From the NCBI RefSeq assembly GCF_000018105.1, contig NC_009925.1:4740001-4772000 (forward strand): a DNA stretch of 32,000 bases, written 5' to 3'. The stretch comes from Acaryochloris marina MBIC11017. Its GTDB lineage: Bacteria; Cyanobacteriota; Cyanobacteriia; Thermosynechococcales; Thermosynechococcaceae. Below, piece by piece: positions 4,256 through 27,500 of the stretch. Below the pieces are notes generated by a model. The model searched no databases. It was given only the letters and a program-made list of their open reading frames with translations, and was not told where the DNA came from. The translations under genes were made by a program, and so were the position numbers. Numbering within the stretch: the first letter of the stretch is position 1; each line of letters starts with the position of its first letter.

Positions 4256-4291
4256 TATTGTCCATTACCAAGAACTCAAAGACGACATCAT

Positions 4292-7814: not shown

Positions 7815-9350
7815 GTGAGACCACCTCACTTGCCATTCCCCAACCAACCCTTCCCCAGGTGGGCTCGTGCTCTGACTTCAACTTTAGTTTTGGGCAGCCT
7901 ATTTTCGAGCTCTGCCATTTCTTGGGCTCAAACCACGGAGGAAGAAGACTCCAGAGATCTTCTGAATAACACTGCTTCTTATTCCTACACCAACTCCAAT
8001 ACAAACACGCTGATTGAAAGCTTCACCAATCCGATTTCAAATGTGTTGGATCCTTCGTTGCTCGATCCCCGTGGGCAAGTTTTAGGCTGTGGCGGAGAAC
8101 CTCTCGCGGACTACACCGGGTTTACGGTCGGTCTCTACAATATTGACCCCAATGATCCGACCCAATCGGAACTAGGGAGCTTAGTGTTGTTAACCCGCAC
8201 TGAAGTTCCTGACATTCCCAATAACGGTATTGCTCTGGGCATCACCCCCAATGGATCTAACATTAACCCATTCCCCCTCACCAATGCCGATCAAGGGACC
8301 TACAGCTATCTACTAGACCCCAACCGAGGACAGCTCGCCGTGGGTCAATCTTATATCTTGGTGGTTACGCCGCCGGATGCGTCCATTTACAACCAGCGTC
8401 GCGTTCGTCTAACCATTACCTCCATTATTCCGACGGGCAACCGCAACTTGGTGACCTATCGGGCTACTTCCCTCGATGGTTTGCCCATCGCCGCAGAAGG
8501 AGAGACCAACTTTGAAGAAACGGTAACCACGATTGGGGATGCTGAGCGAATCTCGTTGCAACTACTGGCCTTAAACTTCTCTTCGACCCTGTGCCAGACC
8601 AATCAGATTCAAATTAGTAAGTCTGGGGACCGAGCCAATGCCGCCCCTGGAGATTCGGTGATTTATCGTCTGACCCTACGTAACCTGTCCGATGGGCAGT
8701 TAGACACCATTTCTGTACAAGATATTTTGCCGACGGGCTTTAAGCTGCTTCCCAACTCGGTTAGAGGGGCTCTGAATGGAACTGAGGTTCCGATTACGGT
8801 TGAGCAAAATGGTCAGAATCTAACCTTTAGGACCGACGCAGTTATTCCTTTAGAAGGGGTCATCAACGTCGTCTATGCAGCACAACTTACCCCAGATGCT
8901 ATTCGAGGCGATGGTAGAAACTCCGCCTCGGTTCTGGGATTCCGAGTCGATAACAACCTGGATGTTCGGGATGGCCCTGCAGTCCACCGAGTGCGGGTAA
9001 ACCCAGGCATCTTAACAGACTGTGGCAATATTCTAGGCCGAGTCTTCGTCGATAAAAACTTCGATGGCGAGCAGCAAACGGGGGAACCTGGTATTCCCAA
9101 TGCTGTGGTCTGGATGGATGACGGCAATCGCATCACAACCGATGAGAATGGTTTATTCCATGTCAGATGTGTATTGCCTGGACCTCGCACTGGTGCTCTG
9201 GATTTAACCACCTTGCCCGGTTACACCTTAGCCCCCAATCTCCACTTTATAGAAAGAAATAGCCCTTCGCGTTTGGTCAGACTCTCTCCCGGTAGCACCG
9301 TACGCATGAACTTCGGTGTCACACCTACCTTCCAGGAGGAGTCCAAATGA
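7815..9350 (+). CDS. Secreted DUF11 + SdrD-B/Cna-B-like domain protein (511 aa)
   Basis: GTG start at 7815, 9 nt after GAGGAG (7800-7805). Signal peptide: WARALTSTLVLGSLFSSSAISWA. DUF11 motif: ISKSGDRANAAPGDSVIYRLTLRNLSDGQLDTISVQDILPTGF. SdrD-B-like motif: GNILGRVFVDKNFDGEQQTGEPGIPNAVVWMDDGNRITTDENGLFHV. Confidence 0.8.
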   Translation: MRPPHLPFPNQPFPRWARALTSTLVLGSLFSSSAISWAQTTEEEDSRDLLNNTASYSYTNSNTNTLIESFTNPISNVLDPSLLDPRGQVLGCGGEPLADYTGFTVGLYNIDPNDPTQSELGSLVLLTRTEVPDIPNNGIALGITPNGSNINPFPLTNADQGTYSYLLDPNRGQLAVGQSYILVVTPPDASIYNQRRVRLTITSIIPTGNRNLVTYRATSLDGLPIAAEGETNFEETVTTIGDAERISLQLLALNFSSTLCQTNQIQISKSGDRANAAPGDSVIYRLTLRNLSDGQLDTISVQDILPTGFKLLPNSVRGALNGTEVPITVEQNGQNLTFRTDAVIPLEGVINVVYAAQLTPDAIRGDGRNSASVLGFRVDNNLDVRDGPAVHRVRVNPGILTDCGNILGRVFVDKNFDGEQQTGEPGIPNAVVWMDDGNRITTDENGLFHVRCVLPGPRTGALDLTTLPGYTLAPNLHFIERNSPSRLVRLSPGSTVRMNFGVTPTFQEESK

Positions 9351-12300
9351 TGAAACAACGTTCTTACCAGTGGATGCAAACTGGACTCCTCGGAATTGTC
9401 GCAGGTACCAGCGTGGCTTTAGCCCCAAATCTGGTTAATGCCCAAGTCATGGAAGAGGTCCAACCAGCAGATGAATCAACCCTGAGTGCAGATAAGCCAA
9501 CCGTTCGTGATGCTGAACCAACCTTACATGCAGAAAATTCGGCTGTTAGTGACGCTGAACCAACCCTAAGCGTTGACCAGGAATCCATTAACGAAGCTCC
9601 TACTCAAGAGCTTGTTATTGAAGAAGCCGCCGCTGATTCTGCCGTGGCTGAAGAGCCTCAAGTTAATCAACCCCAAACAGCAGCTAGTGATCCTCAGCCA
9701 GTTGCTGCCGAAGAAAACATGACTCCTGGCTCAGAAGCTACCAGTTCTGAAAGCCTAAAACAAGATATCCCAGTTGTTGTTGAACAACCGGCTGAAGCTG
9801 CACCTAAAGTTGTCGCTGAAGAGGTATCCTCCCCAACGCAACCCACCGTTTCCACGCCTCAGCCCCCAGAATCGTTGATCAAAGACACTCCCCCTGTGTC
9901 AGATGAGTCTGAGGTACCCGCCCCTGCTTCTACAGAAGCGCCCACAACTGCTCAGACACCAGCTGCTACGTCAGCTTCAGGGATTTCAATCTTAACGCCT
10001 GGTTCTGGGAGTGTGGTTGATAAACCAGCAACCACGGTCATTATTGAATTTGGTGCTGATCAAAAAGTTGAGCTAAGGGTCAATGGTAAGGCGGTTGATA
10101 GCGCTCAAGTGGGTCGAACCGAGACCAATTCTGCCACCCAGAAAGTCCGGCAAACTTGGTATGGCGTCATCCTCGATGCAGGTGTCAATACCATTACCGT
10201 CAATGAAGTCGGTCAAGAGGCCCCTAGTGCATCGGTTCAGGTAGAAGTGCCTGGTGAGCCGACTCAAATTAAGGTGCGAACGGCTCAAAGTAAAGTTCCT
10301 GCCGATGGTCGGTCTACGGCCCAGGTGTTGGGTTACTTGCTAGATGCCAATGGCAACCAGTCGAACTGGGATGCCATTGTCACCCTAGAAGCCACATCAG
10401 GAAAATTCGTGGGTACGGATAACAAACCTGATGTTCCTGGATTCCAAGTGGAAGCCATTGATGGTAAATTCACCGCTGATTTACAGTCCAGCATTAGTGC
10501 AGGGCTGGTGAGAGTTCGGGCTACTGCTGCTGATATGGAAGGGTTCCATCAGTTTCAGTTTTCCACGCCCATTCGACCTTCGGCTCTACTAACCGGGGTT
10601 GTAGATGTGCGGATTGGTCGTCGGGGCACCAACTTCTATGACAGCTTCCGCGAGTTCTTACCTGTCGATGGCGATAATGGGTATGAAGTTGATGCCCGTG
10701 CCCAAGCCTTTGGGATTACTTCCATTGGCGATTGGTTATTAACGGGGGCTTTTAATAGTGCTCGCCCCCTGAATGAGGACTGTAACGGGGAATCTACCCT
10801 GTTCAAAGCCTCAGGTACAGAGTGCGATTACAACAACTACGCTACCTACGGCGATAACTCCACTACGGATGTAACGGCCCCGTCCACCGATAACTTATTT
10901 GTACGATTAGAGCGCACCTCACCCGTCCCCGGTGCTGGTAGTGATTACTTTATGTGGGGGGATTACAACACCGAAGAATTTTCTCGGTCCTCTCAGTTAT
11001 TTACCGCCACCAGCCGCTCTTTACATGGCTTTAAGGGCAACTACAATATCGGCAATCTGCAGTTGACTGCTCTTTACGGCAATAACACTGAGGGTTTCCA
11101 GCGGGATACGATTGCTCCCGATGGCACCAGCGGATTTTATTTCTTATCTCGACGGTTGCTGGTTCCAGGGAGTGAGCAAGTCTTTCTGGAGCTTGAAGAA
11201 CTGAACCGACCCGGTACTGTCCTGAAGCGGGAGCGGTTAAGCCGAGGGGCTGACTATGAAGTGGATTATGATCGCGGTACGTTGAAATTCCAACGCCCGA
11301 TTCTACGCACAGATGTCGATGATGACGGCTTTGTGCTGGTTCGCCGCATTGTCACCACTTACCAATTTGAAGGAGAAAGTTCTGATACCAATACTTACGG
11401 CGGTCGTGCCCAGTACACCTTTTCTCGGAGCTTAGATCAGGAGAGCTGGGTGGGGGCCACCTACTTCCGTGAGGATCGCGGTAGCCAAGACTTTGAACTT
11501 TACGGTGCTGATGCTCTAGTGTCTTTCGGCAAGGATAGTTACCTGGTTGCAGAATATGCCCGGTCCAATAACTCGCTAGATTTCGCGACGCCCGTGAGCG
11601 GCAATGCTTACCGGGTTGAAATTGAGGCAAAGCCCACTGACAATATTTCGGGTCGAGCCTATTTCAAACGGGCTGATGTGGGTTTCTCCAACAATGCCAC
11701 CACTAGCTTTGTTCCTGGCCAAACTCGCTATGGGGCAGAAGTCTTAGCTGCAGTCTCTAAGAATACTAAGCTGCGGGCCAGCTTTGACCATGAGGATAAT
11801 TTTGGGGTTGCACCGCGTCCGCTTGATTTGTTTGAAGATCTAATCCAGCCCGGTTTCTCTCCCACTCCCGGTAATCCAGTCAATAACTCCCTGACGACGA
11901 TTACAGCAGGGGTTCTGCAGCGGATTGGTGATTCGGAAGTGAGTTTGGACTACGTCCGCCGCGATCGCACCGATCGTCTCACGGGCCAGGACATCACCAC
12001 GGACCAGATTCGCTCTACCGCCCGGATACCTCTGACGAAAAAACTGACCTTGCGGGCATTGAACGAGACCACCTTCTCTTCCGAAATTGATCCGATTTAT
12101 CCCAACCGTACTTCCGTGGGGCTGGAATATGAGGTTTATCCTGGCGTCACCATTGGCCTGAACAACACTTACCTGACCGGTGGACAGTTCGATGATGACT
12201 TTATCACTAGTCTAGATATCGCGGGTCAACATACCTTCTCCACCGATACCACCCTCCGAGGTCAGTTCTCGATGATGGGTGACTTGGGGATGGCTGGCTA

Positions 12301-13411
12301 CTTTGGTGTTGAGCAGGGCTTGACTATTGCTCCAGGTCTACGGGCGGATTTCTCCTATGAGCATGTGTTTAACACTGCCTTGCAGCAAACCGCCGCTAGC
12401 CAACAGTTTGCCCAACCCTTTGCCTTAGGGTCCGGTGCGTCTGCCTTAGGCTTAACCCCTGGGGATAGCTTTAGCGTCGGTTTGGCCTATACCGACAACC
12501 CTGATTTTCAAGCCAATGCTCGCTTTGAATATAGTGATACGGCTCAGGGCAGCAATACGATCATTACGGCGAACGCCTTAGGGCGAGCCACCCGCGACCT
12601 AACGGTCTTGGCCAGCTATCAGCAAGCCAGTGCCTCGAACCAAACCCTAGCAGGATTGGGCACCACCCGCGACTTGAAAGTGGGTCTGGCCTATCGGAAT
12701 CCCGATAGCGATAAGTTCAATGGCTTGCTTCGCTATGAGTATCGCGAAAATCCTTCCACGATTCCTGACACCCTACTGTTTGCTAACGGTACCGGCTCTA
12801 CGGATCATCTGATTTCAGCGGAGGCCATCTATGCTCCCAACTGGCGCTGGGAACTCTACGGCAAGTTTGGCTGGCGACATAGCAAGTCTTACCTGGCTCA
12901 GGATTTAATTGGCACCAGCAGCATTTCTCTGGCGCAAATGCGGGCCACCTATCGAATCAACTACCGTTGGGATATTGGCGGTGAAGTCCGCTGGATTCGT
13001 CAAAACAGCACTGGGTTTAATGAGGTCGGCGCTTCTGCAGAAGTGGGTTACTACCTCAATCCCAACTTGCGGTTGGCAGCTGGATACGCGTTTGGCGACG
13101 TGGGCGATCGCGACTTCGGTAACTCTCGCTCAGCCAGCGGTCCCTACTTTGGGGTCACCCTGAAGCTCGACAATAATCTCTTTGATGATTTTGGCTTCGG
13201 CAAAAATAAGGTGGCTCCTCCGCAGCAGCAGGAGTCTGTACCAGGGAACGGTCAGGTACAAGAAGCCTCAAACCCTGCTTCGACCTCTAAGGCTAAAGCG
13301 TCCAATAAAACCACCAAGCCTAAGGCTGAACTGGTCAATACCCAATCTGAAGCGGTTGCAGAGCCCGCGCCTGCACCCCAAACTCAACCTAGTTTTGAAG
13401 TCGTCCGATAG
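9347..13411 (+). CDS. Very large outer-membrane beta-barrel protein with N-terminal Pro/Glu/Ala-rich spacer and Ig-like (Big/invasin-type) domains (1354 aa)
   Basis: ATG 9347 overlaps the upstream TGA (ATGA) and GGAGGAG lies at 9334-9340. Signal peptide: LLGIVAGTSVALAPNLVNA. Low-complexity P/E/A/S/T region at about 9450-9975. Ig-like domains at about 9980-10565, with Big-type motif VPADGRSTAQVLGYLLDANGNQSNWDAIVTLEATSGKF. From about 10570 to 13170 there are long runs of amphipathic beta-hairpins rich in aromatics (for example LKVGLAYRN, LLRYEYREN, WELYGKFGWRH, RATYRINYRWDIGGEVRWIRQ, LRLAAGYAFG, PYFGVTLKL). A roughly 80-aa K/P/A/Q-rich tail follows. Confidence 0.8.
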   Translation: MMKQRSYQWMQTGLLGIVAGTSVALAPNLVNAQVMEEVQPADESTLSADKPTVRDAEPTLHAENSAVSDAEPTLSVDQESINEAPTQELVIEEAAADSAVAEEPQVNQPQTAASDPQPVAAEENMTPGSEATSSESLKQDIPVVVEQPAEAAPKVVAEEVSSPTQPTVSTPQPPESLIKDTPPVSDESEVPAPASTEAPTTAQTPAATSASGISILTPGSGSVVDKPATTVIIEFGADQKVELRVNGKAVDSAQVGRTETNSATQKVRQTWYGVILDAGVNTITVNEVGQEAPSASVQVEVPGEPTQIKVRTAQSKVPADGRSTAQVLGYLLDANGNQSNWDAIVTLEATSGKFVGTDNKPDVPGFQVEAIDGKFTADLQSSISAGLVRVRATAADMEGFHQFQFSTPIRPSALLTGVVDVRIGRRGTNFYDSFREFLPVDGDNGYEVDARAQAFGITSIGDWLLTGAFNSARPLNEDCNGESTLFKASGTECDYNNYATYGDNSTTDVTAPSTDNLFVRLERTSPVPGAGSDYFMWGDYNTEEFSRSSQLFTATSRSLHGFKGNYNIGNLQLTALYGNNTEGFQRDTIAPDGTSGFYFLSRRLLVPGSEQVFLELEELNRPGTVLKRERLSRGADYEVDYDRGTLKFQRPILRTDVDDDGFVLVRRIVTTYQFEGESSDTNTYGGRAQYTFSRSLDQESWVGATYFREDRGSQDFELYGADALVSFGKDSYLVAEYARSNNSLDFATPVSGNAYRVEIEAKPTDNISGRAYFKRADVGFSNNATTSFVPGQTRYGAEVLAAVSKNTKLRASFDHEDNFGVAPRPLDLFEDLIQPGFSPTPGNPVNNSLTTITAGVLQRIGDSEVSLDYVRRDRTDRLTGQDITTDQIRSTARIPLTKKLTLRALNETTFSSEIDPIYPNRTSVGLEYEVYPGVTIGLNNTYLTGGQFDDDFITSLDIAGQHTFSTDTTLRGQFSMMGDLGMAGYFGVEQGLTIAPGLRADFSYEHVFNTALQQTAASQQFAQPFALGSGASALGLTPGDSFSVGLAYTDNPDFQANARFEYSDTAQGSNTIITANALGRATRDLTVLASYQQASASNQTLAGLGTTRDLKVGLAYRNPDSDKFNGLLRYEYRENPSTIPDTLLFANGTGSTDHLISAEAIYAPNWRWELYGKFGWRHSKSYLAQDLIGTSSISLAQMRATYRINYRWDIGGEVRWIRQNSTGFNEVGASAEVGYYLNPNLRLAAGYAFGDVGDRDFGNSRSASGPYFGVTLKLDNNLFDDFGFGKNKVAPPQQQESVPGNGQVQEASNPASTSKAKASNKTTKPKAELVNTQSEAVAEPAPAPQTQPSFEVVR

Positions 13412-13502: not shown

Positions 13503-13534
13503 CTCTACCTAGTTTGTATCCCCAAGAGGTAATC

Positions 13535-15247
13535 ATGAAATCTCGCGGCACGCTCCACTCCTCCCCCCGCCTTCCCCAGCCCTCTTCAGGAATGGCGATT
13601 GCCTGGGCTTCCTTAACCTCTTTGATCGCCATTTCAGGACTCCTTAGCCCTTGTCAGAAGGGGGACTGCACTGCCCATGCCCAAACCCCTAGGGCTACCC
13701 CTACCCCTGTTCAAGTCACGGTGAATAGTCCGTTGGATGGCGAAATTCAGGCCGATGAAGTGGTCACCCTACGAGAAGCGATCGCAATTACCAACGGCGT
13801 GCTCCATAAAGGCGACCTCAGCAAGGCAGAACGAGCCCAAATCTCTCCCAGCACAGATCATAGCCGGATCGATTTTGACTTGCCCAGCGATAACACCACG
13901 ATTCGATTGCAGGCCCTGCTGCCCACCATCACCAACCCCGGTCTTTTGATTGATGGCACCAGCCAAGCGGGTTATGCCCTTGTAGATGGTGACGCCAGTG
14001 CCCCGGCACCGGTCGTTGCCCTGACCCCAGCCGAGGATGTAGAGGTGTTTCGGGGATTAACCCTAGCCGCGGATCAGGTCCATATCAAAGCCTTGAGCCT
14101 TTATGGATTTACCTCCATCCATAAAACCACTGCGACAACACCACCTGCGGATATTTTTATTGCCCATCGGCTCCTGCCGTCCAAGCGTCTCAAAGAAGAC
14201 AACCCCCAAGTCACCTATCCCTACGATGACGAGCGGGATATTCCCCCCCAGGGCGTCATTATTGAGGATAACTATTTAGGGATTACACCCCAAGGAACTG
14301 CCCCTACTGCCCCTCGATCGGCCTTTGGTATATCCATTTACAACGCCATTGGCACGCGGATTCTCAACAACCGAATTGCTCAACATGATGGTAGCGCTGT
14401 AATTACCAGCATCCGCGCCGAACAAACGGAGATTGCCAACAACATCATTGAGCAGAATGGCTTGGCCGGAATGCCCGACGCCATCCGCCTAGAGGGGGAT
14501 ATTGATGGCACCAAAATCCATATGAATCAGATTCAACAGAATGCCGGTAGTGCTGTTTATCTCTTCAAGCCCGAAGGGTCAGTCATGGTTGAAAAGAACC
14601 TGATTGCAGACAATGGTCAACGTTTCCGTCGGGCCGCCATTTTGCTGATGGGGGATAATCACCATGTCGTCAACAACACCATTCAAGACCAACCGGGTCC
14701 AGGTGTGGTGATCACGTCTTATCCCACGAGCCAGCGCAACTATATCCTCGACAATCGATTTGCCAATCTTGACGGCCTCAGCATCGATTTGATTGCTCGT
14801 GAAAACCGTTTTCTTGACCGCTTCTCCCGCATCTCCATCAACCGCGTGGACTTAGCGGATCGATCCAGTACTAGAGTGCAAGACTACCAAGTCGGGGATG
14901 GTCCAAATCCCTTACGCAATTCAGACCAACGCAAGCGCGATACCGCCAACCGAGGCTTGAATACGCCTCAGTTTCTCAGCTCCGAATTTTACATTATGGA
15001 TGGGGCGGTCAACCTGGATGGGGAAGCCGATCCAGGGGCTGAAATTGTACTGTATAAGGTGATGGAAGAGGGTAAGCAAGGTCCTCTTAATGAGCCTGTC
15101 ACGATGGCCAAATCCGATGAAGAGGGGCGGTTTGCCATCACTCTCACGGACGCAAATCCAGGCGATCGGTTCAGTGCGATCGCAATTCATCCTGACTACG
15201 GCACCTCAGAGCCCGCTCGCAATGCCATTGTCTTAAATCTCAGATAA
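13535..15247 (+). CDS. Secreted right-handed parallel beta-helix repeat protein (NosD/pectin-lyase-fold-like) with a C-terminal Ig/carboxypeptidase-regulatory-like domain
   Basis: ATG 13535 is preceded by AAGAGG (13524-13529), so I prefer it to the TTG at 13514 used by the ORF track. Signal peptide: MAIAWASLTSLIAISGLLSP. Periodic beta-helix rungs: ILNNRIAQHDGSAV, IANNIIEQNGLAG, IHMNQIQQNAGSAV, VEKNLIADNGQRF, VVNNTIQDQPGPGV, ILDNRFANLDGLS. C-terminal motif: GEADPGAEIVLYKV...SDEEGRFAITL. Confidence 0.8.
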   Translation: MKSRGTLHSSPRLPQPSSGMAIAWASLTSLIAISGLLSPCQKGDCTAHAQTPRATPTPVQVTVNSPLDGEIQADEVVTLREAIAITNGVLHKGDLSKAERAQISPSTDHSRIDFDLPSDNTTIRLQALLPTITNPGLLIDGTSQAGYALVDGDASAPAPVVALTPAEDVEVFRGLTLAADQVHIKALSLYGFTSIHKTTATTPPADIFIAHRLLPSKRLKEDNPQVTYPYDDERDIPPQGVIIEDNYLGITPQGTAPTAPRSAFGISIYNAIGTRILNNRIAQHDGSAVITSIRAEQTEIANNIIEQNGLAGMPDAIRLEGDIDGTKIHMNQIQQNAGSAVYLFKPEGSVMVEKNLIADNGQRFRRAAILLMGDNHHVVNNTIQDQPGPGVVITSYPTSQRNYILDNRFANLDGLSIDLIARENRFLDRFSRISINRVDLADRSSTRVQDYQVGDGPNPLRNSDQRKRDTANRGLNTPQFLSSEFYIMDGAVNLDGEADPGAEIVLYKVMEEGKQGPLNEPVTMAKSDEEGRFAITLTDANPGDRFSAIAIHPDYGTSEPARNAIVLNLR

Positions 15248-15300: not shown

Positions 15301-15345
15301 CTCTGATCTCACTTAAGAAAAGGAGTGAGATCAGAGTGTTTTGTT
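15301..15345 (+). terminator. Rho-independent terminator-like hairpin after the beta-helix gene
   Basis: CTCTGATCTCACT (15301-15313) pairs perfectly with AGTGAGATCAGAG (15324-15336), a 13-bp stem with a 10-nt loop. The T-rich run TGTTTTGTTCC follows. Confidence 0.65.
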
Positions 15346-15363
15346 CCTGTTCCTCAATGCATT

Positions 15364-17823
15364 ATGTTTTCATTCAATTGTTTTACCCAGAATTCCTATT
15401 GCCAAAATTCTCTCAAAAAATTAAAATATGCACTACGCAGTGCAAAATGGTTACCCGTTGCAACGTTTGCCGCTACAGCATTCAGTATTCTTGTAGCTCC
15501 TTCCGCAGCACTAGCCCAACGTAACTTTTCCCCACGTTTTAGCACTCAAGCTAGGGGGCGAACCACTATCTTCGGAAATCCGGTTACCACCTGTTCTTCG
15601 ACTATTGGTCCCAGAAGAGATATTTGTGCAGCGACTCAACAGGCGACGACAGGGAGTGGCATCGACTTCACCAACAACGGTTATTGGATGGACTATGTGG
15701 ACATTGATAGTGATGGCTCAACATTCAACTCCTCTTCAGTTACTTACAATTTCCCTACCGCGAATCCTGGCTTTAATATCGTCTGGGCAGGACTTTATTG
15801 GGCTGGGGAAACTTCAGCTGGCGCTGCAAGCGGTGGTATTCCTGCTGGTGAAGCAGCTATCGATGCTAGCAAGCGGAACGAAATGTTACTGCGTATTCCC
15901 GGATCATCAACCTATCAAACTATCACTGCAAGCACCTTAGATACGATCAATACAACCCGATATAGTGCTTTTGCGAATGTCACTTCTTTGGTGCAACAAG
16001 GGGGGAGTGGAACTTACTTTGGGGCCAATATTCAAACGGGGAAAGGTCGCGATCGCTATGGTGGCTGGGCGTTAATCGTCGTCTATCAAGATGATTCGGA
16101 AATACTGCGAAGTATGACTGTGTTTGATGGTTTTATTCAGGTTGGAAATAATATCGTTGATACTACAATCAGTGGTTTTCTAACTCCAAATGCCGGGCCG
16201 TTTGAAGCTGCATTCGGGGCGTTTATCAGTGAAGGAGATGTAGGCCTAACGGGTGACCAATTTTTGATTGATGGGGATGGTGCCAACTCCGATGGCGATG
16301 CAACGGACCAGCCTTTCGTCAATATTAGCGATGCCAATAGCCCGACGACCAATTTCTTTAACAGTTCAGCTTCTTTATTTGAGACGCGAATTGGAACCAA
16401 TACAACGGTCAACACGCCTGATGGCAAGACCCTCGGCCCCATTACCCGGAATCCCGATTATCCCAATTTGCTGGCCCTGGATATTGATATTGTGGAAGCA
16501 AAAGATGCGGCAAACAATGCGGTCATCCAAAACAACGCCACAGAAGCAGGACTGAGATTTACCAGTTCAGGGGATTTTTACTATCCCACCGCTTTCTTTT
16601 TCAGTGTTGAAGTCTTTCAACCCGTCTTGACCCAGAACTTCACCAAGACAGTGACGGATATCAACGGAGGCGATTTGAATCCCGGTGATATTTTGGAATA
16701 CACGATCACTTACCGAAATACCGGGAATGATGCGGCGACTGACGTTGTTTTGACGGATGACATTCCCACTCATACGTCTTACGAACCCAACTCTCTGGTC
16801 ATTACCACCGATCCTGATCCGACCCTGACGACTCCAGCGGCGATGGGAGATGGGACCGCAGATAATGATCGGGCTGAATTTGATAGCGTTAATAACCGCG
16901 TGGTTTTCCGGACAGGGATTGGAGCCAATGGGACCAATGGCGGAGAAGTTCCCTTTGACGACCCCAATACACCGATCGCAGAGAACGATACTGTCCAGGT
17001 CAAATTTAGAGTGAAAGTGGATGGTGATATTAACGTCTTTCCTACGACCATTTCTAACCAGGCCGCAATTGACTACAACGGTAAGTTCTCTGGCATTCCA
17101 TTCTCCGGGGTCAGTGATGACCCCACCACTCCCAATGATCCGAATGATCCGACGGATATAGATGTGGTTGAAGCCTCATCGCCCAACCTGATCTTGGTCA
17201 AACGCATCACGCGGATTAATGGCAGCACAGTCAATGGTGCCGTGAACCTAGAGAACTATGTGGATGATGCCAATAGCCCTTACGACGATAACGTGGACGA
17301 AATCCCCCCCTTTGCTGGACAATCTGATCCAAACCAGGATGACACCACCCACTGGCCAGATGCAGATGCAGCCAATGGCCCTGATGACTATCTAAAAGGA
17401 GCGATTGCTGCGGGTGAAGTCAAACCTGGAGATGAGGTTGAGTACACCATCTATTTCTTATCTACGGGGGGTAAGGATGCGATTGATGTACAGCTTTGTG
17501 ATAAAGTCCCTGCTTTGCAACGTTTTGTACTGGATGCTTATAACGCGGTAACGCCAGCGCCCAGTGGAGGTGTCGGGGCCAATCGGGGGATTGAAGTGGA
17601 GTATAACGGCACCATTTTGTCTTATACCAATGATGCCGATGGAGATACTGCTCAGTATTATCCACCTGGCTCAACTCTTCCTGCCCCTTGTAATAATGCC
17701 CCGGCTCAATCAGAAGACAATGGTGCTGTGGTGCTTGACCTAGGCACACTCCCTGAATCAACGGCTCCAGGAGCACCAACCGCCTCCTATGGCGCGTTGC
17801 GATTCCGGGCCAAGGTAAAGTAG
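15364..17823 (+). CDS. Secreted adhesin-like protein: N-terminal lectin/jelly-roll-like domain, DUF11 domain, and a C-terminal module shared with the 18194 gene
   Basis: The ORF-track start (GTG 15325) lies inside the terminator hairpin, so the first in-frame ATG at 15364 is preferred. Signal peptide: AKWLPVATFAATAFSILVAPSAALA. N-domain motifs: IVWAGLYWAGE and RYGGWALIVVYQD. DUF11 motif: DLNPGDILEYTITYRNTGNDAATDVVLTDDIP. Shared C-terminal module at 17182-17820. Confidence 0.8.
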   Translation: MFSFNCFTQNSYCQNSLKKLKYALRSAKWLPVATFAATAFSILVAPSAALAQRNFSPRFSTQARGRTTIFGNPVTTCSSTIGPRRDICAATQQATTGSGIDFTNNGYWMDYVDIDSDGSTFNSSSVTYNFPTANPGFNIVWAGLYWAGETSAGAASGGIPAGEAAIDASKRNEMLLRIPGSSTYQTITASTLDTINTTRYSAFANVTSLVQQGGSGTYFGANIQTGKGRDRYGGWALIVVYQDDSEILRSMTVFDGFIQVGNNIVDTTISGFLTPNAGPFEAAFGAFISEGDVGLTGDQFLIDGDGANSDGDATDQPFVNISDANSPTTNFFNSSASLFETRIGTNTTVNTPDGKTLGPITRNPDYPNLLALDIDIVEAKDAANNAVIQNNATEAGLRFTSSGDFYYPTAFFFSVEVFQPVLTQNFTKTVTDINGGDLNPGDILEYTITYRNTGNDAATDVVLTDDIPTHTSYEPNSLVITTDPDPTLTTPAAMGDGTADNDRAEFDSVNNRVVFRTGIGANGTNGGEVPFDDPNTPIAENDTVQVKFRVKVDGDINVFPTTISNQAAIDYNGKFSGIPFSGVSDDPTTPNDPNDPTDIDVVEASSPNLILVKRITRINGSTVNGAVNLENYVDDANSPYDDNVDEIPPFAGQSDPNQDDTTHWPDADAANGPDDYLKGAIAAGEVKPGDEVEYTIYFLSTGGKDAIDVQLCDKVPALQRFVLDAYNAVTPAPSGGVGANRGIEVEYNGTILSYTNDADGDTAQYYPPGSTLPAPCNNAPAQSEDNGAVVLDLGTLPESTAPGAPTASYGALRFRAKVK

Positions 17824-17872
17824 GCTTCTGTAACTTTGCCCCTAAAACCAATACTTAGCTAAATGCAGAGGC

Positions 17873-17919
17873 ATGAGTTCTAACAATGAACGGAACTCAT
17901 ACCTCGTTTATTTGTTTGT
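17873..17919 (+). terminator. Weak terminator-like hairpin after the 15364 gene
   Basis: ATGAGTTC (17873-17880) pairs with GAACTCAT (17893-17900), an 8-bp stem with a 12-nt loop. The T-rich run CGTTTATTTGTTTG follows. Confidence 0.4.
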
Positions 17920-17988
17920 ACTGGGCACACATTTGGCAAAAGTGAGTGGGGCTTTTTATTCACCCATGGCAAAAATGCGATTCAAAAG

Positions 17989-18043
17989 GTGAACTATAGC
18001 TATAGATGCGGACTATGGCTGTGGATAGTCAACTATAGCTATA
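17989..18043. promoter_or_regulatory. Cluster of palindromic operator-like sites about 150 nt upstream of the 18194 gene
   Basis: GT(G/C)AACTATAGCTATA occurs twice, at 17989-18004 and 18028-18043 (39-bp spacing). Each copy contains the self-complementary core TATAGCTATA; the first extends to the 12-bp palindrome CTATAGCTATAG at 17994-18005. Between the copies lies the inverted repeat GACTAT-N8-ATAGTC (18011-18030). Confidence 0.35.
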
Positions 18044-18193
18044 AAAAGTCTGCCTTAGGACCTCGACTGAGGGATCAAGATTAATGCTCTGAGCGATCTG
18101 ATTCGGGGTAAGAAGACTCTGGGATTTTCCTCTCAGAAAGCTCGTGCTGTCTTTGTTTCAGGTCGTTCAATATTAGCCAACATCCAGTAACTT

Positions 18194-21100
18194 ATGATGT
18201 TTCTCAAATTCTCTAAGCCATACTTGCCCGCTTCAATGACATTTAAGAAAATACTGACAGGTCTTATTCTATCTGGGGCTTTGGAAAGTGTTGGCTATGG
18301 CGGAGCATTACTGGCTAAGGAAACATACCCACACGCTCAGAAATATCAAGTCTCTGCCCATACCCTACTCCAAACTGACTTGGAGCAAACTTCAAATCCT
18401 CTTCATTCCGCTCGCGCAACGGATGTGGTGATTATTGATGCGGGTGTCACCAATTCCCATGCGTTGCTAAAAAATATCCCCAGTCAAGCAGCCGTTCACT
18501 ATCTCAGCCCAACTGGCGATGGATTGGAGCAGATTGGCGATATCCTCAGCAATTATCGAAATCTCAAATCAGTACATTTGCTGGCTCATGGCTCTTCAGC
18601 TCAATTGCAGCTAGGCAACTCATGGGTTAATCCCGCAACTCTCAACCATAGGGCCAAACAAGTTCAGTCGTGGCAAGCCGCGCTATCGCCAACAGCAGAT
18701 ATCTTTCTCTATGGCTGTCATGTTGCCTCTACTGTGGAAGGGAAAGCCTTTGTGTCTGACCTGGCCACTTTAACCGGCGCTGATATAGCTGCCTCAGATA
18801 ATCTGACAGGTGATGCAACCCAGGGTGGAGATTGGACCTTGGAGTATCAGTTGGGTGACCTAGAACCCCATAGGATTTCTCAGCAACTAGCCCTGTCGAA
18901 TTACGATCAGGTTTTGCAAGTTACCGTTCTCAATTTCAATGACCCAACGCCTTCTTTAGAGCCTGCCACAACGGACGTTTTTCGCTTTCAAAATGTCGCT
19001 ACTGTGGGTGGACAAAGTATTGACGCCCTAGTCACGGTTAGCAATATCAATAATGCAACCCTCACTAACTTGGATGATAATGGCTCTTTCCCTGAGCGAT
19101 TCCAACCTGTGATTCGTCATGATGGTGGAGCCAATGCCATCTCCTCTATCCGATTTGATTTTCAGCTCGTTCAAGCGGGAACAACAACTCCTTTAGCCGC
19201 GACCAATGTTTTTTTTAGTGCCCAAGACGTTGACGGTAATGGCTCTGCTAACTCTGTTAGAGAATTTGTAGAAGTCATTAACGCGGAAACTGTCTTTATC
19301 GACGACCCTACTTTTTTGGAACTCGCAGCCTCATTAGCAGGAGGAATCCGCCATCGAGTTATTAATTCCTCCAATGTGCAAAGTGGTATCGGTACGGACG
19401 ATCGCTACGAAATTTACAGTTACTTGGGGGATACCGTTACTAACTTTTCGATTGTTGCTGGTAATGATGTGGGATCTGCCAACTGTTCCGGGGCAAGCTG
19501 CCCTCGCCAAAACTCTTGGACCTTTGATATTTCCGATATTCAAGTGATCGATTTCAGTGATGCGCCATCTACTTATGGCGTTCCTTCCCATGCTGGCACT
19601 GCAGTGACTACGCTTCGACTCGGGACTGCAAGGGATGGGGATAGTGGTCCTATTCCTTCAGCCGATGCTTTAGGAGACGATAACAATGGCTCTGATGATG
19701 AGGATGGTGTTACCTTAGCCCCCCTCAATGCCAGTGATACCTCCTATTCGATTCAGGCATCGAGTCTTTCCGTCACCAATAGTACGGGAGGTCCAGCAAC
19801 CCTACACGCCTGGGTTGATTTTGATGGCAATGGTACTTTTGACTCCGATGAGTATACAAGTCAACCCGTACAGAACGGTATTAGTTCACCAGATGGAGCC
19901 TTAACCTGGTCGGGGGCTGGAGTAAGCGGAATGTCAGGGGGCACGACCACCTATGCGCGTTTCCGGATTACGACGGATGGGGGTATTAATGCCAATACTC
20001 CGGGTGGATTTGCCAGGGATGGTGAGGTGGAAGATCATGCCCTTGCGATCACAACTCCAGTCAATCCAGATATAGATAATAACTTCTGCCAGGTGAGCAG
20101 TGACATGATGTTTATCTTGGATAAATCGGGTTCCGTGAGTCTCAGTGAGCGACGATTACAACGAGATGCGGTTATGGCAATGCTCAATTACTTGGTCGAT
20201 AACAATATTACGTCTCGGGTAGGTATTGTCCGGTTTGACTCTACAAGTGCCACAGTGATCGGTTATACCGATGTAACGGCTGCTAATCTGCCTACTTTTG
20301 AAAGCGCCCTCAATACTAACTATGTCAATATTGGTGGGGGCGCCACCAATTGGGAAGCTGGATTCCAGCAGGCTATTTCCCTGGGGGTATCACCGGGCAG
20401 CCCTGATGTCGTTTTCTTCTTCGCTGATGGCAACATCAATTCGGGAGGCAGCCCGAACGATGAAGCGTTGCAATTCAAGCAGGCGGGTGCTCATATTTAT
20501 GGAATTGGTATCCAAAGTTTAGATATCGATGATTTCTTGGATATAACCGATGGTAGTAATACCACTCAATTTGACGCTGCGCTGGATAATGCTAATTCTG
20601 CCGATTATGTAGAAGTTAATAGCTATGACGACTTAGCGGACGATATGACCAGCTTGTTACGTTCACTTTGTCCACCTGCAACCAACAACCCCAATGTGTT
20701 ACTGGTCAAGCGGATCACCCGCGTGAATGGCCTCACAGAGAATGGGGGCACTAACCTCAATGTTTACGTTGATGACCCCAGCTACGAGTACGATGACAAT
20801 ACCCTCGGTAGCCCTGCGCCCACTCCCTTGGATACCGAATACTGGCCCACTCCAAGCACCTTTTTACTGGGGGCCACCAATGGAGGTCAAACCCGTCCAG
20901 GGGATGAAGTTGAGTACACCATCTATTTCCTATCAACGGGTACTTCAACGGCCGTGGGTGTTCAATTCTGCGATAAAGTTCCTAGTTTCCAAACCTTTGT
21001 GCCTGATGCGTTTAACGCCGTACCCCCTGCACCTAGTGGAGGCGTCGGAGCCAATCGGGGCATTGCAGTCGAATACAACGGCAGTCTTCTCTCATTTACC

Positions 21101-21295
21101 AACGATGCAGATGGAGATACCGCTCAGTATTATCCACCGGGTTCCACCTTGCCCGCAGTTTGTGATAATGCCCCCGCCCAAACAGAAGATAACGGTGCCA
21201 TCGTCGTCAACTTAGGTGATTTGCCCCAAGCAACGGGTGTAGGTACCCCGGCAACTTCTTATGGCGCCGTTCGGTTTCGGGCCAGAGTGAAGTAG
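18194..21295 (+). CDS. Large secreted modular adhesin-like protein: DUF4347, beta-sandwich region, GEVED domain, von Willebrand factor A domain, shared C-terminal module (1033 aa)
   Basis: DUF4347-like region at about 18419-18855: VVIIDAGV...SVHLLAHGSSAQLQLGN...DIFLYGCHVA...LATLTGADIAASDNLTG...GGDWTLEY. GEVED-type domain at about 19546-20050: DFSDAPSTYG...DDEDGV...WVDFDGNGTFD...YARFRIT...DGEVEDHAL. vWA domain with MIDAS at about 20102-20670: FILDKSGSVS...GGGATNWEAG...FFFADG. The start could instead be the ATG at 18236. Confidence 0.85.
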   Translation: MMFLKFSKPYLPASMTFKKILTGLILSGALESVGYGGALLAKETYPHAQKYQVSAHTLLQTDLEQTSNPLHSARATDVVIIDAGVTNSHALLKNIPSQAAVHYLSPTGDGLEQIGDILSNYRNLKSVHLLAHGSSAQLQLGNSWVNPATLNHRAKQVQSWQAALSPTADIFLYGCHVASTVEGKAFVSDLATLTGADIAASDNLTGDATQGGDWTLEYQLGDLEPHRISQQLALSNYDQVLQVTVLNFNDPTPSLEPATTDVFRFQNVATVGGQSIDALVTVSNINNATLTNLDDNGSFPERFQPVIRHDGGANAISSIRFDFQLVQAGTTTPLAATNVFFSAQDVDGNGSANSVREFVEVINAETVFIDDPTFLELAASLAGGIRHRVINSSNVQSGIGTDDRYEIYSYLGDTVTNFSIVAGNDVGSANCSGASCPRQNSWTFDISDIQVIDFSDAPSTYGVPSHAGTAVTTLRLGTARDGDSGPIPSADALGDDNNGSDDEDGVTLAPLNASDTSYSIQASSLSVTNSTGGPATLHAWVDFDGNGTFDSDEYTSQPVQNGISSPDGALTWSGAGVSGMSGGTTTYARFRITTDGGINANTPGGFARDGEVEDHALAITTPVNPDIDNNFCQVSSDMMFILDKSGSVSLSERRLQRDAVMAMLNYLVDNNITSRVGIVRFDSTSATVIGYTDVTAANLPTFESALNTNYVNIGGGATNWEAGFQQAISLGVSPGSPDVVFFFADGNINSGGSPNDEALQFKQAGAHIYGIGIQSLDIDDFLDITDGSNTTQFDAALDNANSADYVEVNSYDDLADDMTSLLRSLCPPATNNPNVLLVKRITRVNGLTENGGTNLNVYVDDPSYEYDDNTLGSPAPTPLDTEYWPTPSTFLLGATNGGQTRPGDEVEYTIYFLSTGTSTAVGVQFCDKVPSFQTFVPDAFNAVPPAPSGGVGANRGIAVEYNGSLLSFTNDADGDTAQYYPPGSTLPAVCDNAPAQTEDNGAIVVNLGDLPQATGVGTPATSYGAVRFRARVK

Positions 21296-21306
21296 GTCGT
21301 TGCTAC

Positions 21307-21353
21307 TTCGCACCTATTAATTGAGGTGCAAAGGCTGAATTAATAGGTGTGAA
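21307..21353. repeat. Inverted pair of the TTC(G/A)CACCTATTAATT motif forming a 16-bp hairpin between convergent genes
   Basis: TTCGCACCTATTAATT (21307-21322) pairs with AATTAATAGGTGTGAA (21338-21353), with one G-T pair and a 15-nt loop. The core is the same as in the tandem repeat at 13464-13502. No U-tract on either strand. Confidence 0.6.
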
Positions 21354-21429
21354 ATCCTAGGGGATTTAGAACTCATACCTCATCTTGACTGGAGTCATGA
21401 CCCGCTCAATTGGCGATTGTTAGGGACTC

Positions 21430-21861
21430 CTATTCTCCACCGACGCTAATTGGCGTTCCCCACATTTTGACATCCGTGAGATTGATATCAGCAATCACCG
21501 CGCCCCGTGCTTCGACGTTGTAAAGGCGGGCTCGGGTCAGGTTCACAGACTCCAAGTGGGTGAGATTGAGGCTGGCATTGGTGAGAAAAGCATCCGTTAA
21601 ATCGGCTTGTTTTAGCCGTGCCCCGGTTAAATCAGCACCTTCCAAATTCGCTTCTTGTAATTGAGCCCCGGTTAAATCCGCATTCCGCAAATCAGCGCCA
21701 ATCAGGTGAGTTTGGCGTAGATCGGCATTGGTTAGATCACACCCTGGGCAAGTATTGGTTGCTAAGAGCTGCTGCACCTGTTCAGGATCTGCTGCCTGAA
21801 CTGGACGTGCCCAAAGTAGGGGTGTGAGGAATGCAAAAGCCACTAATAGTGAGCGTTTCAT
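21430..21861 (-). CDS. Secreted (periplasmic or lumenal) pentapeptide-repeat protein
   Basis: Signal peptide: MKRSLLVAFAFLTPLLWARPVQA. Motif CPGCDL followed by consecutive A(D/N)LxG-type pentapeptides: ADLRQTHLIGADLRNADLTGAQLQEANLEGADLTGARLKQADLTDAFL. Confidence 0.85.
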   Translation of the reverse strand: MKRSLLVAFAFLTPLLWARPVQAADPEQVQQLLATNTCPGCDLTNADLRQTHLIGADLRNADLTGAQLQEANLEGADLTGARLKQADLTDAFLTNASLNLTHLESVNLTRARLYNVEARGAVIADINLTDVKMWGTPISVGGE

Positions 21862-24514: not shown

Positions 24515-27500
24515 TTAAGGCTCCCACAGCTTCACCGTCCGGTCGGAGCTGGCCGTGGCGATGGTGTTGCCATCTGGGCTATAGGTTACACTCAAGACCC
24601 GATTACTGTGTCCTTTGAGGGTTTGTAACTCCTTGCCATCGGCGCTCCACAGCTTCACCGTTTCATCATTACTGGCTGTGGCAATGGTTTTGCCATCCGG
24701 GCTATAGGTCACACTCCTAACCGGAGCACTGTGTCCTTTGAGGGTCTGTAATTCCTTGCCATCGGTGCTCCACAGCGTCACTGTCTGGTCATCACTGGCT
24801 GTGGCAATGGTTTTGCCATCCGGGCTATAGGTCACACTCCTAACCGGAGCACTGTGTCCTTTGAGGGTCTGTAATTCCTTGCCATCGGCGCTCCACAGCT
24901 TCACCGTTTCATAATTACTGGCTGTGGCAATGGTTTTGCCATCCGGGCTATAGGTTACAGCACTGTGTCCTTTGAGGGTCTGTAATTCCTTGCCATCGGC
25001 GCTCCACAGCTTCACCGTGCCGTCAAAACTGGCTGTGGCAATGGTTTTGCCATCCGGGCTATAGGTCACACTCCTAACTGAACCACTGTGTCCTTTGAGG
25101 GTTTGTACCTCCTTGCCATCAGCGCTCCACAGCTTCACCGTGCCGTCATCACTGGCTGTAGCAATGGTTTTGCCATCCGGGCTATAGGTTACACCCCAGA
25201 CCGCAGCATTGTGTCCTTTGAGGGTCCGTAACTCCTTACCATCGGCGCTCCACAGCTTCACCGTGCCGTTATCACTGGCTGTGGCAATGATTTTGCCATC
25301 CGGGCTATAGGTCACACTCAAGACCAGAGCTTCAACAGTTAGTTGACTGATGCCATCCCGAATTTGAAAGCTTTCTTGGTCAAGTAATTTTGCTTTTGTA
25401 TAAGGATCATAGTCTAGTGATGCCCCCCATTTTTTCGCTAGATTAAACAAATCAACCGCTGTTGTGATTTGACCTTGTTTTGCCGCTATTTCAGCCTGCT
25501 CAAGTAAAGCAGGTATAGCCTTAGCTCTTAGTGCAGGCTTAAGTCTAAGACAAACATCCAGATCTCTAAGCAGTAAAGGTTCTCGGATCAAATAATCGTC
25601 AAGCCAGTGACAAGCAATATTCAATAATTTCTCAACGTCCAGTATCCACAGCTTCACCGTGCCGTCAGAACTGGCTGTGGCAATGGTTTTGCCATCCGGG
25701 CTATAGGTCACACTCCTAACCGGAGCACTGTGTCCTTTGAGGGTCTGTAATTCCTTGCCATCGGCACTCCACAGCTTCACCGTGCCGTCAGAACTGGCTG
25801 TGGCAATGGTTTTGCCATCCGGGCTATAGGTCACACTCCTAACCGGAGCACTGTGTCCTTTGAGGGTCTGTAACTCCTTACCATCGGCGCTCCACAGCTT
25901 CACCGTATTGTCATCACTGGCTGTGGCAATGGTTTTGCTATCTGGGCTATAGGTCACACTATTGACCAAATCACTGTGTCCTTTGAGGGTCTGTAATTCC
26001 TTGCCATCGGCGCTCCACAGCTTCACCGTTGCATCATTACTGGCTGTGGCAATGGTTTTGCCATCCGGGCTATAGGTCACACTATTGACCAAATCACTGT
26101 GTCCTTTGAGGGTCTGTAATTCCTTGCCATCGGCGCTCCACAACTTCACTGTCTTGTCATCACTGGCCGAGGCGATGGTTTTGCCATCTGGGCTATAGGT
26201 CACACTCCTGACCGCAGAACTGTGGCCCAATAAGCGCTCTTGCTCACGCACCCCATAGATAACGTCTCGCATAGCAGCTAATGCTTGCATAGTCACAACG
26301 CCATCAAGATCCTCTGACTGGAGTCTTTGACCCGTTTTGACAGCTTCAATCACCGCATCTTTCTCAAAAAATGCCGCTTTATAGTTCAGCATCGCGAAGC
26401 TGGATGCCACTACCTGAGCATTCTTTTCTCCTCTAAGCGCAGCTTGTTGCCCTTTTATCGCAGCTTGTCGCATGGACAGCGCAATTCCTCCAGCAATGAT
26501 TGCCAGAACTGCTAATCCACCTAAACCGACAGCAGCAAACCTTGCCTGTCGTAACTGCTTTGTTTCCGCACCCTGCCGACGTTCACGCTCTTCCTCTAGT
26601 TGAACCATCAGAGGTCGTTGGGTTTCCCGGATAAACGCAGCGATAAAGTCATGAAAAAGCTGGTACCGAATATGATCTTGATCTTGCAGCTCTAGTACAA
26701 CACCTGACTTTAATAAGATTGTCGAGACTTGCTGCCACCGCGATTCATCTTTTTCTACCCCATTCCCCAATGGTTGAATCGCATTCAACAACTCGGATCG
26801 AGTCAGCAGGGGACGAGTGCCCTTAGCATCCGTTAAAGAAAATAGAATTAAGTCGGCAAGTTTCTGAGCATCAGCGTCGCCACATGCAGACACCACCGAT
26901 CTTAGAAAGCGATCAACGAAAGTATTTTTATCACCTTGGCGTTGATAGGCTTCTAGGGTCTCAATCCCTTCTTCCTGTAGCTGAGTCCCAATTACTTGGA
27001 GTTCAACAGGGCGGACTTCTCCTTCAGTCGCTAAGTCTTCAACTAGCTCCTGAACTAATTGTTCCTCTAGTTGAAATTGAGTCTCCTGACTTAATTCATA
27101 GATAATTTTTTTGGCCCGCTGAACCGAAAAATTTCCCAGATAGTAGCGGTGACGGGGACTTAAAATATTTTGTAAGGCATCAGCACTGGTCTCGTTATTC
27201 GCCTCTAACCGCTCACACTCCAACAGTGTATGGAGATAGTCCTCCCGCAAGGACAGCGATATTTTGACATGATGTAGGGCATCAGAATCCATACAATGTC
27301 GTAGAAAAGCCCAAAATTGCTCACGAATGGCTAACGTCGTGGCAAAGAAAAATTCTTCAAATTGGTCAAATATCAACAGGACCTGGCAATTTCCTTTGCT
27401 TAGTGCCACCAGTCTATTAACTAATCCCGCGAAGCTTTCTTTTTGATCATCAGCTTGTTCTGCATCCGAAGTAACCGATGTAGCCATAACGGAAGCTAGG

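Follow-up and report, generated by a model that had tools for sequence, protein, structure and literature searches.

A C-terminal domain shared by cyanobacterial adhesin-like proteins is linked to a giant-barrel operon and is a candidate surface-display module

In a 32,000-nucleotide stretch of the Acaryochloris marina MBIC11017 genome (contig NC_009925.1, positions 4,740,001 to 4,772,000; this whole stretch is referred to as the window and its first letter as position 1), two adjacent adhesin-like genes, here called gene A and gene B, encode proteins with unrelated N-terminal parts and similar C-terminal ends of about 200 residues. The locus therefore raises the question of what one common C-terminal domain, here called the module, does on different proteins. 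On balance, and reading from its genomic associations, we think that the module probably serves as the C-terminal domain by which proteins are targeted and anchored (docked) in a barrel-based cyanobacterial surface-display system. The two genes and their modules are arranged as follows.

15364-17823, plus strand: gene A, 819 residues, with a Sec-type signal peptide, an N-terminal region without a family match, one internal DUF11/CLIPPER domain and the module.
17182-17820, plus strand: module of gene A, 213 residues (607-819 of the 819-residue product), matching positions 2-190 of the module hidden Markov model (HMM) with 254 bits.
18194-21295, plus strand: gene B, 1033 residues, with a signal peptide, DUF4347, GEVED and VWA domains and the module.
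20690-21292, plus strand: module of gene B, 201 residues (833-1033), matching HMM positions 1-190 with 260 bits.

Alignment of the two modules by BLASTP gave 135 identical residues over 213 positions (63%, E 4e-81; residues 620-832 of the open reading frame (ORF) that opens at 15325 against residues 833-1033 of the gene B product), and the nucleotide sequences were 66% identical. Identity was higher over the final 130 residues (98/130, 75%), in agreement with the initial annotation, which had estimated three quarters by hand, and both proteins ended in YGA(L/V)RFRA(K/R)VK, with gene A reading YGALRFRAKVK. Outside the module the two proteins shared only a generic DUF11 core, seen as a 45-residue match at E 2e-6. 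Gene A carried one DUF11/TIGR01451 domain at residues 448-494 and the rest of its N-terminal region matched no family. The genes are C-terminal paralogues with unrelated N-termini, as had been proposed, and the module pair is under purifying selection, with 0.27 nonsynonymous substitutions per site (dN) and a ratio to synonymous substitutions (dN/dS) of about 0.16. Exactly two modules were found by hmmsearch in the whole window. The product of the gene at 4292 had been thought to share the module's layout and was rejected as a carrier: its C-terminus aligned with the module profile over 23 generic DUF11 columns at an hhalign probability of 3.3%, hmmsearch with the module HMM was empty for it at E <= 10, and the likeness is that of the general DUF11 strand pattern. 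The 7012 product matched the module HMM over the core alone (positions 56-115).

The module profile was searched against 1.84 billion representative proteins, resulting in 6925 matches at E <= 1e-3 and 1214 at E <= 1e-30. The matches were of two classes. Giant DUF11 repeat proteins matched the core only (profile positions of about 50-120), 13 to 40 times each, and proteins of about 450-2000 residues carried a single full-length match that ended at the protein C-terminus. When proteins with the full-length module were evaluated by hmmsearch, 130 of 130 contained one copy, which ended 0-3 residues from the protein end and at exactly 0 in 119 of them. A SYGFIRFRAKVK-type terminus had been present in 29 of 30 matches of the first homologue search. 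An exact look-up of the Acaryochloris homologue P0002 gave no entry. The single, extreme C-terminal copy led us to reject the possibility that the module is a generic internal DUF11 repeat. The N-terminal cargo was diverse. A set of 46 full-length members contained DUF11 (20), DUF7619 (19), SdrD_B (19), GEVED (18), CarboxypepD_reg (13), SpaA (12) and VWA (5) domains, along with DUF7933, LTD and alpha-2-macroglobulin domains. A crude hydrophobicity test detected a signal-peptide-like N-terminal segment in 78 of 92 members, and the hydrophobic N-termini of the gene A and gene B products resemble Sec signal peptides. In the databases these proteins are named 'DUF11 domain-containing', 'TIGR01451 family' or 'fimbrial isopeptide formation D2 family'. 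This distribution is what the initial annotation had envisaged, a common C-terminal module on different cargoes as expected of a sorting, anchoring or docking domain, and the genomic evidence suggests such a function.

The module did not correspond to a sorting signal already represented in Pfam or NCBIfam, where scans with it at E <= 10 gave matches to DUF11-type families alone. The models of the C-terminal domain (CTD) of the type IX secretion system (T9SS; TIGR04183, TIGR04131 or the Pfam equivalent) did not match the module. The C-termini of the gene A and gene B products contained no LPXTG motif, PEP motif or terminal hydrophobic helix and matched no NCBIfam model of such signals. LPXTG, PEP-CTERM and T9SS CTD identities were rejected on these termini and model scans. 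The C-terminal beta-signal of outer-membrane proteins was rejected as well, as the last residue is Lys in 101 of 132 members and is never aromatic among the residues listed.

Upstream of gene A the window contains a set of genes on the same strand, one of which encodes a giant barrel protein.

4292-6907, plus strand: gene for a DUF7925 protein of 871 residues, which opens the conserved operon and lacks the module.
7012-7572, plus strand: gene for a secreted protein of 186 residues with a single CLIPPER domain, a core gene of the conserved operon.
7815-9350, plus strand: gene for a CLIPPER/SdrD_B protein of 511 residues, with a stop codon that overlaps the barrel start codon (ATGA).
9347-13411, plus strand: barrel gene, for a giant outer-membrane protein of 1354 residues with a signal peptide, linker, immunoglobulin-like (Ig-like) domains and a beta-barrel.
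13514-15247, plus strand: gene for a right-handed, NosD-like beta-helix protein, found after the barrel in some related operons.

The association between module and barrel was assessed in both directions. GTDB was scanned using one genome per species, which yielded at least 569 module-encoding stretches. Eighty of these were kept, representing 77 distinct loci whose sources are named cyanobacteria or metagenome-assembled genomes (MAGs) that are unclassified or carry odd labels, and the window proteins were run against the 77 loci by tblastn. A barrel homologue was detected in 33 of the 77 (about 1000-2100 bits) and in 27 of the 42 that had at least 9 kb of upstream DNA. It always lay upstream of the module gene in the same orientation, and the distance from its end to the module start was 1.6-7 kb. 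The gene order was conserved, with the DUF7925 protein followed by the small CLIPPER protein, the CLIPPER/SdrD_B protein, the barrel, sometimes the beta-helix protein, and 1 to about 5 module genes. In the reverse test a full-module gene was present within 10 kb in 7 of 7 barrel loci of different lineages (Synechocystis sp. PCC 7509, Fischerella sp. NIES-3754, Nodosilinea, an Aphanothece MAG, Leptolyngbya FACHB-261, Nostoc carneum NIES-2107 and the sister strain of the window). In genomes of 5-9 Mb, two such genes would be expected to lie within 10 kb of each other by chance in well under 1% of cases. The initial annotation had asked whether the module accompanies the barrel gene at 9347; it does so in both directions, and this linkage together with the terminal position argues against a generic repeat lacking genomic association with the barrel. 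Two contigs labelled as members of the candidate phyla radiation, L006 (JAAUUT010000017.1, labelled Candidatus Gracilibacteria) and P0023 (labelled Parcubacteria), encoded the module or the complete cyanobacterial barrel operon, with identities of about 50-56%. These are most likely mis-binned cyanobacterial contigs.

These data bear on the simplest alternative, in which the module is an ordinary structural domain, the terminal stalk or cap domain in a single, expanded family of adhesins, and lies near the barrel only because surface genes cluster. The homology of its core to generic DUF11/CLIPPER stalk repeats fits this explanation, as does the database annotation of module proteins simply as DUF11 or TIGR01451. 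It does not account, however, for a lone copy at the extreme C-terminus of all 130 proteins, for LVKRIT and terminal motifs that are invariant across unrelated cargoes, or for the two-way linkage to one barrel operon across cyanobacterial orders, and we consider it very unlikely.

The barrel protein consists of a signal peptide, an acidic Pro/Ala-rich linker, Ig-like (invasin/Big_1-like) domains and the predicted barrel. Its homologues, at least 1564 with identities of about 56%, span cyanobacterial orders, and the organisms named among the 120 homologues listed were all cyanobacteria. Residues 205-1300 were modelled with AlphaFold2 (AF2) using an alignment built from database homologues. The model contained two Ig-like domains followed by at least 32 long antiparallel strands (mean predicted local distance difference test score, pLDDT, 72.6). 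A fold search with this model returned generic large barrels at template modelling (TM) scores of 0.32 or below, namely Deinococcus SlpA, MtrB, FimD, LptD and TonB-dependent transporters, and also Ig-domain matches. Pfam gave weak Ig-like matches and sub-threshold DUF2490 matches, and the only match of the barrel in a phmmer search against PDB was a designed barrel (E 0.04). The stop codon of the 511-residue CLIPPER/SdrD_B protein overlaps the barrel start in the sequence ATGA at 9347-9350, and the same four-nucleotide overlap was present in five of six barrel loci of other lineages (L078, L079, L201, L202 and L204; 10001-10004). The conserved overlap suggests translational coupling and a stoichiometric partner of the barrel, with the 7815 protein and the barrel forming a fixed-ratio complex. 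A PapD-like chaperone, a sortase or a conserved protease was not listed in the window operon or in the seven barrel loci.

We then asked what kind of domain the module is. Judged by its sequence, the module is a specialised derivative of the DUF11/CLIPPER Ig-like domain and not an unrelated fold. Its centre, and nothing else of it, was recognised weakly by Pfam and NCBIfam as DUF11/TIGR01451. TIGR01451 scored 31.9 bits on the module core of gene B and 21.6 bits on that of gene A (cut-off 24), and Pfam DUF11 scored 15.0 and 15.7 bits on the two modules, below its cut-off of 24.6. Aligned with the internal DUF11 domain of gene A, the module gave an hhalign probability of 95.8% over 52 core columns, and the distance from P88 to D113, 25 positions, equals that from PGD to DxLP in DUF11. 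To this core the module adds an invariant first strand (L-V-K-R-I-T), an acidic, 55-70-residue insert that separates strands 1 and 2 and contains a conserved W-P, two conserved Cys residues, and an invariant, basic and amphipathic terminus, SYGFIRFRAKVK-COOH, or S-Y-G-F-(I/V)-R-F-R-x-K-V-K-COOH. Residues K13, R14, T16, I96, Y97, C112, D113, G210 and F214 were invariant in 132 sequences. The codons of the key residues in the window are given below.

17200-17202 (K13), 17497-17499 (C112), 17500-17502 (D113), 17689-17691 (C176) and 17737-17739 (D192), plus strand: key codons of the gene A module.

The AF2 model of the module, made from a 26-sequence alignment, was an Ig-like sandwich of 9-10 strands (pLDDT 83.8). 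Fold searching gave weak matches, the best being isopeptide pilins and first among them the streptococcal pilus backbone pilin 4uzg (probability 0.87, E 8.7e-3, TM 0.27); the entry 9IFR was among the matches at E 0.25. The module profile did not match PDB chain sequences at E <= 10. DUF11 was recently renamed CLIPPER and solved as 9IFR, revealing a CnaA-like Ig fold in which an isopeptide bond joins K715 to N806 and D748 is presumed to be the catalyst (PMC12617251). An equivalent triad can be discerned in the module sequences, as K13 and D113 were present in 132/132 members and N or D at position 192 in 118/132, in the same register as K715, D748 and N806. The module is thus probably locked by an isopeptide bond between K13 and N/D192, with D113 as catalyst. 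C112 was present in 132/132 members and C176 in 126/132, so both Cys residues noted in the initial annotation are conserved across the family, and the near-invariant pair fits its suggestion of a disulfide, which C112 and C176 probably form. The last strand presents an alternating basic face (R213, R215, K217 and K219), and this face together with R14 is a candidate recognition surface, although it could also bind an acidic ligand such as lipopolysaccharide (LPS).

Taken together, we infer the following sequence of events. Adhesin-like proteins with differing N-terminal cargo would be exported by Sec through their N-terminal signal peptides. Their common C-terminal domain would then be recognised by, and kept bound to, a machine built around the co-encoded giant barrel, which probably also includes the DUF7925, 186-residue CLIPPER and 511-residue CLIPPER/SdrD_B proteins. 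The LVKRIT strand and the terminal strand R-F-R-x-K-V-K would be the likely recognition surface. Cargo would thereby be passed across the outer membrane and subsequently held on it.

The fate of the module after such recognition could be different. The module might instead be a cleavable secretion signal like the T9SS CTD, guiding cargo through the barrel and then being removed, with the cargo released or attached by other means. This would share the logic of the T9SS, where Ig-like terminal domains are found on diverse Sec cargo with a very large barrel nearby, and it is consistent with substrate genes that are both clustered and dispersed. However, no protease or sortase-like gene was conserved in the operon, no T9SS CTD or other sorting-domain model matched at E <= 10, and at about 200 residues the module is twice the size of a T9SS CTD. 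The apparent isopeptide triad and disulfide would suit a retained part and not a discarded tag. We therefore favour a load-bearing anchor or dock that stays in place and regard the cleavable signal as quite unlikely.

Where the module attaches could differ as well. If the barrel acted like an usher and assembled a fibre of the 7012, 7815 and 4292 products, module proteins would be tip or adaptor adhesins joined to that fibre and not to the barrel. The three secreted CLIPPER/DUF11-class proteins in the operon core upstream of the barrel would suit this arrangement, and so would the pilus backbone pilin 4uzg, from a Gram-positive organism, as best fold match of the module, the usher FimD among the barrel matches with the highest target-normalised TM-score listed (0.32), and homologues named 'fimbrial isopeptide formation D2 family protein'. 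On the other side, the operon contains neither a PapD-like chaperone nor a sortase, the barrel matches no usher family and has low TM-scores, and the fold matches of the module are themselves weak (best E 8.7e-3, TM 0.27). The module fold also looks complete, with its own first and last strands, and so shows no sign of donor-strand exchange. We judge the fibre to be the less likely arrangement, though it deserves more weight than cleavage, and we return to docking at the barrel machine as the preferred reading.

Several observations weigh against docking at the barrel. More than half of the sampled module genes had no barrel within 10 kb; module genes located away from the barrel are nevertheless as expected for substrates of a shared machine. 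Position 192 is neither N nor D in about 11% of members. Contact between module and barrel, recognition, translocation and anchoring are read from genomics, and the isopeptide and disulfide bonds are predicted from conservation and homology. The full-size fold is akin to that of the stalk repeats, and the module could be a basal stalk or cap that binds LPS, polysaccharide or peptidoglycan. Finally, NCBI names many barrel homologues 'TonB-dependent receptor', others being 'Ig-like domain-containing' or 'hypothetical'. The receptor identity was rejected, having no Pfam or NCBIfam support and fold matches to such transporters at TM scores of 0.25 or below.

Going one step further, the operon has an appreciable chance of being a new secretion or display system. 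In its most specific form, this would be a previously unrecognised two-step system in which a barrel of at least 32 strands with periplasmic Ig-like domains, together with three CLIPPER-class partners, exports or anchors changeable adhesins through an isopeptide-locked C-terminal domain, in parallel to the T9SS and chaperone-usher systems and evolutionarily independent of them. We put this forward tentatively, as somewhat short of probable.

The history of the pair was evaluated from the coding sequences and their 3' flanks. The initial annotation had described a segmental duplication that moved a 3' gene end together with its flank. Both genes end in TAGG, as it had reported, and the 13-mer GAACTCATACCTC follows at 17893-17905 and 21369-21381, 70 and 74 nucleotides past the stops. 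The proportion of synonymous differences (pS) between the module copies was 0.68 and dS was about 1.7, near saturation, which indicates that the duplication is old and led us to reject a recent segmental copy. Residual codon similarity was detected, with identical residues using the same codon in 45% of cases vs 36% expected from codon usage. In strict local alignment of the flanks the 13-mer alone was significant, with 12 of 2000 shuffles scoring as high. Global alignment gave p of about 0.03 for the stretch from stop to 13-mer and about 0.001 for the 80 nucleotides downstream. The duplicated gene end and the shared flank motif stood, and a recent joint move of gene end and flank was not supported; flank similarity beyond the motif was weak and is accounted for by TTGGC-containing repeat pairs. 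These pairs lie downstream of the 13-mer and read TGGCAAAAGTG and TGGCAAAAATG after gene A (17934-17944 and 17967-17977) and AATTGGCGATTG and AATTGGCGTTCC after gene B (21398-21460). The surroundings of the two 13-mers are as follows.

17868-17905, plus strand: stem-loop 3' of gene A, with arms GAGGCATGAGTTC (17868-17880) and GAACTCATACCTC (17893-17905).
21369-21381, plus strand: 13-mer copy after gene B, with a degenerate upstream arm.

After gene A the 13-mer is the 3' arm of a stem of 13 bp that contains a single mismatch and precedes a T-rich tract (folding free energy -18.8 kcal/mol, z -2.6). After gene B the partner arm is degenerate and folding was not significant (z -0.37). Both copies and the gene A stem-loop were unchanged in the sister strain (locus L080), and the bases right after the stops had diverged. 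The 13-mer was absent from the 77 related module loci, and a metagenome scan with the 14-mer GGAACTCATACCTC gave 120 unrelated single matches from gut, soil and marine samples, as expected by chance. As synonymous sites are nearly saturated, conservation of the 13-mer needs selection or a small conversion tract, and the element is real and has a probable function, for example as a terminator, RNA-stability element or binding site. That it was instead left behind passively by the duplication, or matches by chance, would be in keeping with the weak overall flank similarity (p of about 0.03 and 0.001) and, for a remnant, with the surviving codon similarity (45% vs 36%). But 13 identical neutral bases out of 13 at matching offsets are unexpected at pS 0.68, chance would be very unlikely to place an exact match at corresponding offsets, both copies were kept in L080 while bases just past the stops diverged, and the gene A copy is the arm of a stable hairpin. 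We consider remnant or chance an unlikely origin.

Two further observations concern this intergenic region. The window lacks a 126-nucleotide segment that is present in L080 (18560-18685), and the indel starts exactly 3' of the 13-mer GAACTCATACCTC (17905/17906), which places the gene A hairpin at the indel boundary. Between genes A and B there are also two copies of GT(G/C)AACTATAGCTATA, at 17989-18004 and 18028-18043 and 39 nucleotides apart, which contain TATAGCTATA palindromes, themselves make up an inverted pair as well and are identical in L080. They could act on gene B as an operator or promoter element.

The ORF that contains gene A extends from 15325 to 17823 and has an upstream GTG at 15325. 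The interval between the beta-helix gene and gene A contains a terminator-like element, a perfect 14-bp hairpin at 15301-15336 followed by TGTTTTGTT. The hairpin overlaps this GTG and the gene A homologue in the near-identical sister locus L080 is called at 819 residues, making ATG 15364 the likely start. With the hairpin upstream, transcription of gene A may be separate from that of the barrel operon. Upstream of the DUF7925 gene, the 1.3-kb gap at 2953-4291 is AT-rich (GC about 0.39 vs about 0.49 elsewhere), contains no ORF of 100 or more residues and no Rfam match, and may be the regulatory region of the operon. Rfam matched nothing in the window as a whole. An NlpC/P60 peptidoglycan hydrolase gene (193-951) and a Ser/Thr protein kinase gene (1066-2952) lie upstream of the operon; they flank it in L080 and not in other genera, and are therefore probably outside the system. 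On the minus strand, a 1609-residue protein rich in WD40 repeats (24515-29344) is overlapped and preceded by a 446-residue gene with weak, sub-threshold AAA-type ATPase matches (29341-30681), beyond which is a DUF559 endonuclease-like gene (30902-31354). These three genes look unrelated to the adhesin operon.

To our knowledge, the transit of large adhesins across the cyanobacterial outer membrane is poorly understood, and we know of no T9SS in cyanobacteria and of no classical chaperone-usher system that handles such adhesins. A C-terminal domain tied to a giant-barrel operon is a concrete and testable candidate for an adhesin export pathway. If the proposal is true, the surface-displayed adhesin repertoire of any cyanobacterial genome would be predictable from sequence, the module would be a portable tag for display or secretion in cyanobacterial biotechnology, and a CLIPPER stalk-repeat domain would have been recruited as a sorting and anchoring module. 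Current annotation is uninformative or misleading here, as module proteins are called 'DUF11 domain-containing' and the barrel 'TonB-dependent receptor' or 'hypothetical'. We found no Pfam or NCBIfam model that treats the module as a distinct entity. Literature on DUF11/CLIPPER in cyanobacteria, fibrillar adhesins, secretion and exoproteomes yielded no account of the module or the operon, and the sole relevant paper found was the characterisation of the CLIPPER/DUF11 domain (PMC12617251).

The nearest relative of the module is the DUF11/CLIPPER domain itself. The two share a homologous core (PGD-x-V-x-Y-T-I ... G ... D-x-x-P) and an Ig-like sandwich of about nine strands, the strand-1 Lys, DxxP Asp and penultimate-strand Asn/Asp of the module appear to correspond to the 9IFR triad, and the module likewise sits in Sec-exported fibrillar-adhesin-like proteins. 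In contrast to the tandem stalk repeats found in the middle of such proteins, the module is single and at the extreme C-terminus. It also differs in its acidic insert, Cys-pair inserts, LVKRIT strand, basic terminus and specific barrel-operon linkage, and it falls below the Pfam DUF11 threshold (15 bits vs 24.6).

Chaperone-usher pili (FimD/PapC) are similar in that an operon combines Ig-like secreted subunits with a large barrel, and FimD was among the fold matches. They differ in that the present operon has no PapD-like chaperone and no usher family match in Pfam or NCBIfam, and its subunits look like complete Ig folds. The usher barrel has 24 strands, whereas our barrel model has at least 32 long ones.

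The T9SS of Bacteroidota (SprA/Sov) offers a parallel in logic, with an Ig-like domain at the extreme C-terminus of diverse Sec cargo, a very large barrel, and substrate genes that are in part clustered and in part dispersed. Unlike the T9SS, the system proposed here belongs to another phylum, its module is about twice as large and has an apparent isopeptide and disulfide, and its barrel has no detectable relationship to SprA. Families of the T9SS machinery such as SprA/Sov, PorV and PorU were absent from the window operon and from the genes listed for the seven barrel loci, a search that covered these loci and not whole genomes, and the operon showed no gliding-motor genes.

In type XI secretion (Slam/DUF560) the cargo domain is an 8-stranded barrel and not an Ig-like sandwich; the operon barrel has no DUF560 match, and the module cargoes are not lipoproteins. 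The likeness is in logic, with diverse surface cargo being recognised through its conserved C-terminal domain by an outer-membrane barrel dedicated to it, and we propose the same logic for this operon. By analogy, the module resembles in kind the known C-terminal sorting-domain systems, the CTDs of the T9SS and the cargo domains of Slam.

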